64,000 bases of DNA, taken from assembly GCA_001940845.1 (NCBI GenBank), contig MSGV01000023.1, positions 404,355 to 468,354 of the forward strand, read 5' to 3'. Positions 41,000 to 44,920 of the stretch are shown one piece after another. Every line of letters begins with the position of its first letter. The first letter of the stretch is position 1. The DNA is from Christensenellaceae bacterium Phil7 (lineage in GTDB: Bacteria; Bacillota; Clostridia; Christensenellales; CAG-138). A program made the position numbers and the translations under genes. Below the pieces are notes generated by a model. The model was given only the letters and a program-made list of their open reading frames with translations, had not been told where the DNA came from and ran no database searches.

Positions 41000-41953
41000 T
41001 TAACCTCCAAACCCAATTGAAGCATCCAATGAATCCAGAGTATCGAAGGTATATCCAGCTTCAATAAGCTTATCGATCATTTGCGGTATCAACTCTATGC
41101 TTTCCTGGCAGGTATCATGAGCAAGAAATATGAGTGGTTTACCTGCCGAAATAGCATTCTTCAAGGATTGCTCAAATGATTGCATCATGTATTCCTTCAT
41201 TGGCAGATGATCCTTATTTCCAGCAGGCCATCGATCATTATCTCCAAAGAACCAATCGTAGTATCTATATCCCTCAGAATCAAGTGCGGTCATTATCTTA
41301 GTTCGCACCCATTTAGGCAGATATGATGTGTTGCTTCCCCCCGGAAAGCGAACGATTTTACATTCAGGAATGCATCCCGTTGCGTTCTCTACAGCCGTCT
41401 CCCACTGATGAACATCATCCATAAAAGCATCAGCCGATGCGTATATGCTCTGATATTCATGGGTATAGGTATGGCAGGCAATCAGATGGCCACGATGCAT
41501 CGCATCCCGAACTACTTCCGGATGCCTGTCCACATAATAGCCAACGGTAAAAAAAGTCGCTTTGATGCCATATCCATCTAGAATATCCAGCAGTTGCTCC
41601 GTGCATTTGGGCGATGGACCATCATCAAAAGTAAGATATACGACCTTATCAACACCTCCAGTCGTCGGCTCTGCGGTTGGTTCTGCGGTGTAATGAGGAG
41701 GAGTACTGGGCGGAGTCATTGTTGCAACCGAAGTTGACGGCTCCTCCGTTGCTGATGGTGTGCTTTCAGGTGAAGTCGTTTCCGGATCATCCGTCCTTAA
41801 AGCCGTTTCCTTTGGAATTACGGAAGCCGTGATCGAATTGAACGGAGTGTCGTACCCACCGTTTATGTCAACATCAACGACTCCACCTGCGCAGCCTGCT
41901 GCAATAAGACAAATACAGATCAAAGCTTGCATAATAATCACAAATCTTTTCAT
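41000..41953 (-). CDS. Secreted/lipoprotein CE4 polysaccharide deacetylase
   Basis: Start at ATG 41953 (GGAG RBS). Lipobox LIAAG|C, Pro/Thr/Ser-rich linker, canonical NodB motifs TFDDGPSP and HTYTH. Confidence 0.85.
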   Translation of the reverse strand: MKRFVIIMQALICICLIAAGCAGGVVDVDINGGYDTPFNSITASVIPKETALRTDDPETTSPESTPSATEEPSTSVATMTPPSTPPHYTAEPTAEPTTGGVDKVVYLTFDDGPSPKCTEQLLDILDGYGIKATFFTVGYYVDRHPEVVRDAMHRGHLIACHTYTHEYQSIYASADAFMDDVHQWETAVENATGCIPECKIVRFPGGSNTSYLPKWVRTKIMTALDSEGYRYYDWFFGDNDRWPAGNKDHLPMKEYMMQSFEQSLKNAISAGKPLIFLAHDTCQESIELIPQMIDKLIEAGYTFDTLDSLDASIGFGG

Positions 41954-42184
41954 ATTACTCCGGTTTCCTTTCAAAATAACCTTCTTGTGTGCCGTGCATT
42001 TTTGATATGAAGACCGCATCGCCTTCATATTCTCTATTAGTATGATAGCATCTGCATATTCAAAATCAAGGCAATTAATGTTAAAAAAATGTGGCATTTT
42101 TGTTGCATTTTTAACAAATTTCGCACATTTTTTTATTTACGCTTCACAATATTTTTATATATTTTTTCTTTAATTTTAAGCAAA

Positions 42185-42217
42185 GAACCCTGCCTATCTT
42201 TTGATAAAGCAAGGTTC
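42185..42217 (-). terminator. Putative terminator after the VTC-DUF4956 pair
   Basis: GAACCTTGC...GCAGGGTTC stem (1 mismatch) followed by TTTGCTT on the minus strand. The U-tract is weak. Confidence 0.4.
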
Positions 42218-42243: not shown

Positions 42244-42939
42244 CTAAATCAGCTCACCATTACTATTTAAGCCGGGAATTGAACAAGAAATCTCGAGATT
42301 GCCATTATATATGCGGAGTTCATCTATGAATTCCTTTTCACTTATCCCATTGCGGAGAGTAATTCTATAATGCAGGTTGTATAAGCTTCCCATATTCGTT
42401 GTTTTAACACGAATCAGCTCATGCTTTACGGTATACTTTTCAAATATAGGCTGAAAAATATCATCATAACTCAAGCTCTCCGGTATTGTGATTTTAAGCT
42501 CGCGATCGCCCGTTTTCAATTCACCCAGTTTCGTAAAAGAGATTATAATATTAACGAGACAAACAATGATCGTGAGTACGATAGAAATCCCAATATATCC
42601 CATACCCGTAGCAAGACCAACCGCCATTGCAAGAAATATGCTTGTAATATCACGCGCAGAAGCCGGTGCCGAACGGAAGCGAACAAGGCTGAATGCCCCT
42701 GCCACCGCAATTCCGGCTCCCAATTGACCATTCACCAATGCAATTATAGTCTGTACTATTACGGGTAAAAGCACCAAAGAAACCGTAAGACTTTTGGTAT
42801 ATCTATTCCTGAAGGTATTGCATAATGCAATTACGAGTCCAAGAATGAGTGAGACGACCATGCAAATCAGATATCCAGATATGGTAAGCGTATCAGTTGT
42901 TGAGAATACGCTAGTAAAAATAGTAGCATCAAATAGCAT
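42244..42939 (-). CDS. DUF4956-like membrane protein
   Basis: Four N-terminal TM helices plus a ~90-aa soluble C-domain. GGAGG 7 nt before ATG 42939. Overlaps the upstream VTC gene by 11 nt. Confidence 0.7.
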   Translation of the reverse strand: MLFDATIFTSVFSTTDTLTISGYLICMVVSLILGLVIALCNTFRNRYTKSLTVSLVLLPVIVQTIIALVNGQLGAGIAVAGAFSLVRFRSAPASARDITSIFLAMAVGLATGMGYIGISIVLTIIVCLVNIIISFTKLGELKTGDRELKITIPESLSYDDIFQPIFEKYTVKHELIRVKTTNMGSLYNLHYRITLRNGISEKEFIDELRIYNGNLEISCSIPGLNSNGELI

Positions 42940-43699
42940 TGTTTTTCCTCCAATCATCAGAAAGCTGAATATTTACAGAATTATGTCCGCTTTCAAGCTT
43001 TCTTCGTAGTTCTTTAGCGTATGCCGTGCCATACTTAGAAAAGGAAGATGGGTAGACTTCGTTTTCATTCAGCAAATGAGTCATCCAAAGCGGCATTGCA
43101 GATGCCGTTTTAACTTCCATAACATAATTACCTGATGGCAACAATGTTTTTCCATAACTTCCATGCCTGAGATCGAGATCCTCGATTCTGTAACGAATGT
43201 TTGCATCAATGGTCAACCTAAGATTCTCATCAATCTTATCCACTAATGCGAGCCGATCGCAGAAAACCGCGTATGCAGGGCGAATTCCCTTATAAAACTG
43301 TAGGAAATAAGCTATTTCCCTACCAATTTGTGCATCTTTTCCAGATGGCACAGGGCCCGTCCCATCCAAAAAAGCAACTGCAGATGCATGCTCCATCTGA
43401 ATTCTGCGCTTATATACAATTCCCTTGTATTTTTTCTTAAGCTCGACAAAGGCCTCGCCATGATCATCCGGAGTATGATAGCAGCGAAGTCTTAGCTTTT
43501 CCTTGTATACCGGCTTTTCAATGGAGCTGCGGATAATTCGATTATCTGGAGTATCGTAGTAAAGACTGCTGACGGTACTCCTTCCAAACATATCCAGCTT
43601 CATGTGTTCCCACATGATCGGCATGATGGCAGAATGCTGTTTTTCCGTAAGCACGTATTTTTTCTCTATTCGAGTAAAAATGTTGTTGCTTCTAGCCAT
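42929..43699 (-). CDS. VTC-domain / triphosphate tunnel metalloenzyme (polyphosphate polymerase-like) protein
   Basis: TTM beta-strand signatures with alternating charged residues: RIEKKYVL, SLYYDTPD, EKLRLRCY, FVELKKKYKGIVYKRR, YVMEVK. Confidence 0.75.
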   Translation of the reverse strand: MARSNNIFTRIEKKYVLTEKQHSAIMPIMWEHMKLDMFGRSTVSSLYYDTPDNRIIRSSIEKPVYKEKLRLRCYHTPDDHGEAFVELKKKYKGIVYKRRIQMEHASAVAFLDGTGPVPSGKDAQIGREIAYFLQFYKGIRPAYAVFCDRLALVDKIDENLRLTIDANIRYRIEDLDLRHGSYGKTLLPSGNYVMEVKTASAMPLWMTHLLNENEVYPSSFSKYGTAYAKELRRKLESGHNSVNIQLSDDWRKNNAI

Positions 43700-43841
43700 T
43701 ATTTCCTCCTGCCCTCAAACATTCATCGTGCATTATACCATGAAAGCTTCATTTCTTAAATACTTTTACGTCAAATTCCGCCAAATATATAATATTCGTT
43801 GATGAGTGTGGTTCAGCTGGTCCATTCAGAAAGCTTTTATT

Positions 43842-44774
43842 TTAAACAAACTTGCAGATATAATCTGCAAGATTGCCATACATAACCTTATAAATTTCCT
43901 CATCATTCAATCCAATATCATACAATCCATTTGCTATATTTGGCAGATATCGGCTATCCTCCAAGCCATCCGGGCACCTATCCATACCATCAAAATCCGA
44001 TCCTATGGCGCAGCAATCGATCCCGCCAACTTCAATTATGTGCTCTATATGCCGCAAAACATCACTTATGCTGCATGTCTTTTTATCAGTCAATTGTTTA
44101 TAATAGAAATTCACACCAATGACTCCGCCCATTTCTGCAATTGCCTTGATATGTGCATCCTGCATACAGCGCGGATGATCACGCAAAACTCGCGCATTGG
44201 TATGCGATGAAAAAACGGGCTGAGTTGTTCTCTCCAAGACATCATCTATGCCGACATCTCCAAGGTGAGCGAGGTCGATCGCCATACCTATCCTGTTCAT
44301 TTCATCAATTATTTCTTTTCCAAGCTTACTAAGCCCACGACGACTTCTCTTTGTTGCCGGATAAGCCAAGGAATTAACGTCATTCCAGGTTAACGTCATA
44401 GCACGCACGCCAAGCTTATAAAGCATACGAAGGTTTTCGGCAGATCCCTCAATTGCTTCACCGCCCTCTATGGTTAGCACGGTAGCAATTTTATCACTGT
44501 CAGGACTGAAATCTTTACTGAGCGGAACGAACACGGGATTTGATTCAAGCATCCGATAATACGCATCAATCATATTTATGCATTGACTCAATGGGTTTTG
44601 CTTCAAAAGAATATCAATCCATGCTGCAAAGAATTGAAGCTTAACATTGCCCTCTACCATCCTTGGCAGCGTCATCGTCTGTTTGCCTATAGGTTGTTTT
44701 ATATCATAGCAATTATTCTGCATGCCATAGAGAAAATCACAATGTGCATCAGCACAAGGAAACTTTTTTTTCAT
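43842..44774 (-). CDS. Membrane dipeptidase (peptidase M19 family)
   Basis: DAHCDFLYG, LTWNDVN, DLAHLGD, SSHTNAR motifs. AAAGGAG RBS before ATG 44774. Confidence 0.88.
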   Translation of the reverse strand: MKKKFPCADAHCDFLYGMQNNCYDIKQPIGKQTMTLPRMVEGNVKLQFFAAWIDILLKQNPLSQCINMIDAYYRMLESNPVFVPLSKDFSPDSDKIATVLTIEGGEAIEGSAENLRMLYKLGVRAMTLTWNDVNSLAYPATKRSRRGLSKLGKEIIDEMNRIGMAIDLAHLGDVGIDDVLERTTQPVFSSHTNARVLRDHPRCMQDAHIKAIAEMGGVIGVNFYYKQLTDKKTCSISDVLRHIEHIIEVGGIDCCAIGSDFDGMDRCPDGLEDSRYLPNIANGLYDIGLNDEEIYKVMYGNLADYICKFV

Positions 44775-44920
44775 CTTCGTACTCCTTTCATTCCCGATGT
44801 TGAACTTATGTTCAGCATCAATAATTATAACATACTTTCCCAAGTTATTCATTTAAATGTTAAGAATACATTCTTGGACGTAGAGCCAATAACACTCAAA
44901 CCTTTGCTATCTATAATTTA

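Follow-up and report, generated by a model that had tools for sequence, protein, structure and literature searches.

In bacteria, polyphosphate synthesis is attributed to the enzymes PPK1 and PPK2. Another arrangement is that of the yeast VTC complex, in which a soluble tunnel enzyme, the polymerase Vtc4, is combined with a dedicated membrane component. The same general layout is found in a 64,000-nucleotide stretch of DNA (the window) from the Christensenellaceae bacterium Phil7 (assembly GCA_001940845.1, contig MSGV01000023.1, positions 404,355 to 468,354), in which a gene for a 256-residue protein with a VTC domain (P0001) is followed by a gene for a membrane protein of the DUF4956 family (P0002). 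The analysis presented here supports P0001 as a Vtc4-type enzyme, and suggests that the two proteins may form a membrane-docked polymerase serving partners outside the cytoplasm.

The VTC-DUF4956 module has been described before (2010, 2020 and 2025) but is biochemically uncharacterised, and the Phil7 pair is one more, minimal member of it. VTC-domain genes with membrane-protein neighbours and cotH were described in the NELoc-2 region of Clostridium perfringens (Lepp et al., 2010; PMC2879425). As in Phil7, a VTC gene is followed there by a gene for a cytoplasmic-membrane protein (about 222–226 amino acids), the arrangement being duplicated beside CotH; the membrane protein is annotated there as “tubulin/FtsZ-like” and may be of the DUF4956 family. 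Unlike the Phil7 locus, NELoc-2 is a pathogenicity-associated region, and it belongs to a different genus. The genes cotH, polyphosphate polymerase, DUF4956 and DUF4832 were subsequently listed as accessory genes of Gram-positive pel loci (Whitfield et al., 2020; PMC7112168). An initial annotation of the window had considered the pair to have no assigned function; this stands for the literature searched, although the pair had thus already appeared in print as cotH/polyphosphate polymerase/DUF4956 accessory genes.

Genetic data come from a 2025 study of Streptococcus intermedius, in which each of three genes (SIR_1592-1594) was deleted (PMC12345266). When either the DUF4956 protein or the secreted CotH protein was lost, aggregation in 10% artificial sputum medium fell by more than 50% and Pel levels were altered, being raised by the loss of DUF4956 (PMC12345266). 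The DUF4956 protein was described as an MgtC-like transmembrane domain with an intracellular ACT domain (PMC12345266). The Phil7 pair resembles these pel-locus genes (PMC7112168; PMC12345266) in having the same two families side by side, in association with secreted CotH, and differs from them in its neighbours: instead of cotH or pel, genes for an M19 dipeptidase and for a CE4 deacetylase flank it. The three-gene arrangement was reported only at Pel loci (PMC12345266), whereas it occurs widely across the loci of the present sample, in which pel is not among the recurrent neighbours.

The tunnel enzyme

The gene encoding P0001, a predicted cytoplasmic protein, lies on the minus strand at 42929..43699. 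The initial annotation had read here two open reading frames overlapping by 11 nt, the upstream one encoding 256 residues with motifs typical of triphosphate tunnel metalloenzymes and of Vtc4. Both frames and their overlap are confirmed (with a 231-residue downstream protein starting at 42939), and all the motifs quoted are present: RIEKKY (residues 10–15), YYDT (47–50), KLRLRCY (68–74), FVELKKKYKGIVYKRR (84–99) and MEVK (194–197). The hidden Markov model searches it had proposed, with PF09359 and PF16316, place both proteins above the curated cut-offs. P0001 matches the Pfam VTC family (PF09359) with an E-value of 4.9e-41 and 141.2 bits (cut-off 23), over profile positions 2–233 of 235. NCBIfam has no model for P0001 or P0002, and single-sequence searches of the PDB returned no matches for either protein. 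A profile built from 67 relatives matched yeast Vtc4, Vtc2 and Vtc3 chains, and only these, in the PDB (best E-value 4e-11). The best Foldseek matches of the AlphaFold2 model of P0001 (mean predicted local distance difference test score, pLDDT, 92.4) are the yeast Vtc4 structures 3g3r and 3g3q (TM-score 0.72–0.73, E-value 6e-14), whereas the hydrolytic tunnel enzymes and cyclases among the Foldseek matches listed reach a TM-score of 0.50 at most. The earlier assignment of P0001 as a Vtc4-type triphosphate tunnel enzyme is thus supported, the yeast polymerase being its closest relative both in profile and in predicted fold.

Compared with the yeast VTC complex (3G3Q, 3G3R, 7YTJ, 8I6V), P0001 belongs to the same Pfam family, has Vtc4 as its best structural match and retains all the catalytic and phosphate-binding residues that could be mapped. 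In the HMMER alignment, K200, R264 and R266 of Vtc4 correspond to K14, R70 and R72 of P0001, R361 and R373 to R149 and R161, and E426, S457 and K458 to E195, S221 and K222. None of these eight residues of P0001 varies among 100 sequences with identities as low as 18%, and the same holds for R10, E12, Y47, D49, E86, K88, K90, K97, T163, D165 and K197; the enzyme is strongly constrained. Unlike the yeast protein, P0001 has no SPX domain (the VTC domain is the only domain found) and is free-standing, not a portion of a membrane subunit.

P0001 also shares an eight-stranded tunnel, a triphosphate site and an invariant metal-binding glutamate (E195) with E. coli YgiF, Arabidopsis TTM3, CthTTM, thiamine triphosphatase and the cyclase CyaB. 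In hydrolytic tunnel enzymes, a second, catalytic metal is held by three glutamates, both of those in the ExExK motif and the second of ExE, and Vtc4 lacks this site (Martinez et al., 2015). The corresponding positions in P0001 are R10, E12 and K197, two of the three being basic, as in Vtc4; P0001 differs in this respect, as in its low TM-scores, from the hydrolytic enzymes. E12, which corresponds to the second ExExK glutamate, does not vary in the family and takes the place of Thr198 of Vtc4. The three second-metal positions favour a polymerase-type chemistry without settling the matter, and the synthesis of polyphosphate by P0001 is given slightly less than an even chance. Lys458 has a catalytic role in Vtc4, whereas the hydrolase AtTTM3 can dispense with the same lysine (Martinez et al., 2015). 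The position of Vtc4 Y359 is occupied by a cysteine in P0001 and by a tyrosine in 91% of the family.

The membrane partner

The DUF4956 protein P0002 (231 residues; 42244..42939, minus strand) matches Pfam PF16316 with an E-value of 5.3e-14 and 52.7 bits (cut-off 30.6), and 3949 representative homologues were found at an E-value of 0.001 or less. Its model (pLDDT 89.9) has five long helices, followed by a beta-alpha-beta-beta-alpha-beta C-terminal domain (C-domain) that is ACT-like; of the four transmembrane segments and soluble C-domain described in the initial annotation, only the C-domain is therefore retained. Two basic loops, RNRYTK after helix 1 and VRFRS...RD after helix 3, share one side of the model with the C-domain. 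According to the positive-inside rule, the N-terminus would therefore be outside and the C-domain cytoplasmic. The family has a signature of its own, a set of near-invariant residues in and around the VRFRS loop (G81, F83, R87, F88, R89 and S90), together with a conserved RxRNGNL end.

The C-domain resembles ACT domains and the C-domain of MgtC (2lqj), with Z-scores of 7.8–8.8 (7.8 for 2lqj). In the fold search with the DUF4956 model, the matches to the C-domain were of a generic ACT/ferredoxin-like kind and those to the membrane part were unconvincing; a DUF4956 profile returned no matches in the PDB. Alignment with 24 MgtC proteins from the same class by hhalign gave a probability of 96.6% (E-value 6e-10) over 196 collinear columns, against 0.7% for a reversed-sequence control, and each half of the protein matched MgtC collinearly on its own (P-values of 6e-5 and 2e-4). 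MgtC clusters were also the nearest to DUF4956 in a language-model atlas, with scores at the level of a lead only. Pfam MgtC models gave no match at cut-off for P0002 or anywhere else in the Phil7 genome, and a sub-threshold match (E-value 6e-4) for one longer DUF4956 relative. Given the hhalign match, its reversed control, the independent matching of both halves and the ACT-like C-domain, DUF4956 is a remote homologue of MgtC/SapB. Like the members of this family (PF02308/PF21770; 2LQJ), it has about 220–240 residues, with a helical membrane domain and an ACT-like C-domain (MgtC_SapB_C); unlike them, it has its own VRFRS and RxRNGNL motifs and is always paired with a VTC gene.

Pairing, distribution and exported partners

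The distribution of the pair was studied in 250 genomes from across the class Clostridia, 125 VTC-positive and 125 VTC-negative, these genomes being related and the counts, thus, non-independent; gene neighbourhoods were studied at 80 VTC loci from other species. P0001 matches more than 8000 clusters at 90% identity, the members of which are named “polyphosphate polymerase domain-containing protein” at NCBI. DUF4956 was detected in 122 of the 125 VTC-positive genomes, and none of the 250 has DUF4956 alone; the three VTC genomes lacking it include one with a partial VTC match and one with a weak match. The DUF4956 gene lies directly downstream of the VTC gene in 79 of the 80 loci, and of 57 called pairs, 45 have overlapping genes, the commonest overlap being 8 nt. 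The pairing is far beyond chance, and the coupling and co-conservation of the two genes are supported. One-to-one pairing with overlapping genes suggests a stoichiometric complex, in which the two proteins would be physically docked.

Fusions of the two domains were considered as evidence of contact and rejected: the membrane part of P0124 is frame-shifted, and P0135 and P0273 join truncated halves, such that these fusions look like assembly or deletion artefacts. Two apparent fusions of VTC with Cthe_2159 (P0146 and P0157) were also set aside, as the VTC domain that they retain is limited to some 100 residues.

Two exported protein families are associated with the pair. CotH proteins, the co-occurrence of which had been raised in the initial annotation, are present in 88/125 VTC-positive genomes versus 8/125 VTC-negative ones, and Cthe_2159 beta-helix proteins in 77/125 versus 11/125; one or both were found in 118 of the 125 VTC-positive genomes. 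A Cthe_2159 gene (about 600 codons) directly follows the DUF4956 gene in 53 of the 80 loci. A hydrophobic N-terminal segment is present in 44 of 54 of these Cthe_2159 neighbours, the examples displayed having a lipobox-like cysteine. Genes for an OmpR/PhoB-type response regulator and a histidine kinase adjoin the pair in 39/80 loci; in NCBIfam, all the matches of these two-component systems to PhoR/PhoB were below cut-off. The Phil7 genome itself encodes three CotH proteins and a single Cthe_2159 lipoprotein, and each of the four has an N-terminus of the signal or lipoprotein type.

Several further observations concern these partners. The three CotH proteins of the 2.2-Mb Phil7 genome (contigs C43, C10 and C8; loci L092-L094) are large and exported. 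One of them combines a lipobox with four lamin-tail domains; the other two have C-terminal dockerins, which suggests that these kinases may be displayed on a cellulosome-like scaffold. Many genomes have two or three VTC-DUF4956 pairs (e.g., G165, G239, G032, G056 and G215), some of these pairs adjoining CotH and others Cthe_2159, suggesting paralogous modules with different outside partners. In a metagenomic protein of 729 residues, P0125, a full VTC domain is joined straight to a Cthe_2159 domain, with no DUF4956 in between. If real, this protein would have both domains on the same side of the membrane, in conflict with the lipoprotein signals of the other Cthe_2159 neighbours. Its only source is one contig of 3.7 kb, and a deletion or an assembly error may account for it. 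A search for double-membraned examples in a plasmid collection gave four matches, all from Gram-positive genera. In a transcriptome table for Bacteroides thetaiotaomicron, a DUF4956 gene adjoins a DUF2490 gene. Among fungi, CotH and Cthe_2159 domains have been reported together only in anaerobic gut fungi, in which Cthe_2159 has been traced to transfer from rumen Clostridiales (PMC6712302). The two families found in gut fungi are the same as the two partners of the bacterial VTC pair.

Relation to PPK1

PPK1 was found in 53/125 VTC carriers and 25/125 non-carriers, so that the pair, carried by 53/78 PPK1-positive and 72/172 PPK1-negative genomes, is somewhat more common in the presence of PPK1. 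No PPK1 was found in the other 72 of the 125 carriers, and the VTC enzyme could therefore be their main polyphosphate synthase. The pair does not, then, simply replace PPK1, yet most of its carriers show none. PPK2 was not found in the Phil7 genome, the only genome checked for this enzyme.

Possible functions of the pair

The reading preferred here, with a probability of roughly 0.4, is that the pair acts as a Vtc4-type polymerase that is docked at the membrane and works for extracytoplasmic partners, possibly via polyphosphate export. The VTC and DUF4956 proteins would be the two subunits of a membrane-associated enzyme complex, in which P0001 would extend a polyphosphate chain with the terminal phosphate taken from ATP, like Vtc4 in yeast. 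DUF4956 would dock P0001 at the membrane through its ACT-like domain and its arginine-rich cytoplasmic VRFRS loop. The complex would serve the exported CotH kinases and the Cthe_2159 beta-helix lipoproteins, with polyphosphate, or phosphate derived from it, passed to the outer face of the membrane. In favour of this reading are the Vtc4-like profile, fold and tunnel residues, the near-obligate pairing, the association with exported CotH and Cthe_2159 proteins, the predicted topology of DUF4956, the carriers with no PPK1 found and the S. intermedius phenotypes of the DUF4956 and CotH deletions. Movement of the product across the membrane, through DUF4956 or along it, is the improbable part of this scheme, as MgtC relatives are not known as channels, no pore is visible in the model and the VTC knock-out is silent. 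More doubtful still is a fully developed second bacterial route of the VTC type, in which an oligomer of DUF4956 would export the chain to CotH kinases and Cthe_2159 lipoproteins as a source of phosphoryl groups or energy, or as a polyanionic ligand.

A number of observations weigh against the proposed membrane-docked polymerase. At the level of the enzyme, no assay of any bacterial VTC protein was found in the literature searched, and the chemistry of P0001 may differ from that of Vtc4, given the invariant E12 in place of a threonine. The only published knock-out of a bacterial VTC gene, that in S. intermedius, was accompanied by no reported change in aggregation or Pel, unlike the deletions of its DUF4956 and CotH neighbours (PMC12345266).

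As regards the membrane partner, the initial annotation had seen the pair as mirroring the VTC logic of a tunnel coupled to a membrane channel, and this part of its interpretation is not supported: DUF4956 is of the MgtC-like type with an ACT-like domain, as opposed to the three-helix VTC/DUF202 type of yeast, and showed no relation to the latter in the comparisons made. The yeast VTC membrane domain was seen neither in Pfam (in which only DUF4956 was matched) nor among the Foldseek and VIA-align matches listed, although a likeness of DUF4956 to the VTC channel would be compatible with the absence of a structural match. The five-helix monomer model shows no evident pore, and the characterised MgtC/SapB members are membrane regulators, not known to form channels. 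No CotH-fold kinase is known to use polyphosphate. The co-occurrence counts overstate independence, because the sampled genomes are related. In Phil7 itself, the pair stands alone, with neither a CotH nor a Cthe_2159 gene adjoining it, these genes being located on other contigs, and a canonical PPK1 gene adjoins PPX, so that the pair is not the only candidate polyphosphate synthase of this organism.

The chief alternative is a regulatory pair of the MgtC type without export. DUF4956 would bind some other machine in the membrane (for example, an exopolysaccharide synthase, a phosphate transporter or the ATP synthase), and its ACT-like domain would sense short polyphosphate, inorganic triphosphate (PPPi) or a nucleotide, thereby tuning the envelope to the phosphate or energy state of the cell. 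The homology with MgtC/SapB spans the whole length of the protein, the ACT-like fold is typical of ligand sensing, and a phenotype upon DUF4956 deletion in S. intermedius together with a silent VTC deletion would suit a regulator better than a conduit; the frequent two-component neighbours are also consistent with this view. However, nothing in the MgtC consensus lines up with the conserved VRFRS loop in the hhalign alignment. Regulation alone would also leave unexplained why exported proteins, CotH or Cthe_2159, accompany the pair so nearly without exception, and why Cthe_2159 is found in the same operon. Strict one-to-one pairing with gene overlap points to a stoichiometric complex; a purely regulatory role seems rather unlikely. 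The catalytic evidence for the membrane-docked polymerase applies just as well to a membrane-anchored synthase working for internal use, with DUF4956 as its anchor or activator, polyphosphate as a cytoplasmic store or chaperone, and an indirect link to CotH and Cthe_2159 through, for example, shared regulation or ecology. The carriers with no PPK1 found would need another internal synthase, and a model with no evident pore is in keeping with such a role. This is nevertheless improbable, as the pair is somewhat more frequent in PPK1-positive genomes, Phil7 itself has PPK1-PPX, and the operon link to exported lipoproteins is hard to ascribe to ecology alone.

There is similarly little probability that P0001 is not a processive polymerase at all, and acts instead as a tripolyphosphatase, an NTPase, a cyclase or a phosphotransferase onto a non-phosphate acceptor (a lipid or a glycan). 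Fold and profile group it with Vtc4 and not with the CYTH hydrolases, two of the three second-metal glutamates are replaced by an invariant arginine and an invariant lysine, and K222 is invariant, whereas its equivalent is dispensable in AtTTM3. Nevertheless, hydrolases make up most of the triphosphate tunnel enzymes characterised, and AtTTM3 makes no polyphosphate despite its Vtc4-like tunnel centre; the invariant E12 absent from Vtc4 and the cysteine at the Y359 position (a tyrosine in most of the family) also argue for a different activity.

Organisation of the Phil7 locus

The 11-nt overlap is between the 3' end of the VTC gene, including its stop codon, and the start of the DUF4956 gene at the ATG at 42939. 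A putative ribosome-binding site, GGAGGA (42946..42951, minus strand), was read within the 3' end of the VTC gene, 6 nt before this ATG. The longest open reading frame of the DUF4956 gene begins at 42957, giving a 29-nt overlap, but the start at 42939 is the better one because of the position of GGAGGA and because homologues have about 222–231 residues and begin to align at about residue 13 of the long form. A consensus scan upstream of the pair found a promoter-like site (TTAAGA-16-TATAAT with an extended -10 TG, 10/12 matches; 43732..43759, minus strand) about 33 nt from the VTC start codon; this is a pattern match only, such sites being no more common in the region than in shuffled sequence. 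Folding of the RNA from 42243 to 42140 revealed a terminator-like hairpin (42185..42217, minus strand) followed by UUUGCUU, located 27 nt past the DUF4956 stop codon, with an energy of -21.1 kcal/mol (z -2.98 versus shuffles). This hairpin is missing from the list of a simple terminator scan because its loop exceeds the length allowed by the scan. Given the promoter-like site upstream and the hairpin with its U-rich run downstream, the two genes look like a bicistronic unit, or small operon, of their own.

The pair is flanked by two genes on the same strand, both identified with Pfam: a gene for an M19 membrane dipeptidase directly upstream (43842-44852) and one for a CE4 polysaccharide deacetylase directly downstream (41000-42097). 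The order M19-VTC-DUF4956 is common to Phil7 and its closest relatives (loci L009, L011, L016 and L020); this synteny is lineage-limited, with no obvious functional link. The deacetylase (365 residues) is membrane-anchored; its N-terminal segment is hydrophobic, and it has a linker rich in Thr, Pro and Ser. The NCBIfam models that it matches best are those of peptidoglycan GlcNAc deacetylases, all far under the cut-off. A deacetylase is also present in the Gram-positive pel loci carrying VTC/DUF4956, and the CE4 neighbour is not conserved across the loci most closely related to the Phil7 pair.

Implications

A Vtc4-like enzyme whose active site is intact is encoded by half of the 250 genomes sampled, and the Phil7 window adds one minimal example, the pair on its own without the genes that usually accompany it. 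Should the enzyme be a polymerase, a substantial fraction of gut anaerobes would make polyphosphate by an unstudied route, and the close association of the pair with exported kinases and lipoproteins would point to a use of polyphosphate at the cell surface. If exported polyphosphate does feed the CotH kinases, this would explain how kinase chemistry can take place outside the cell, without ATP.

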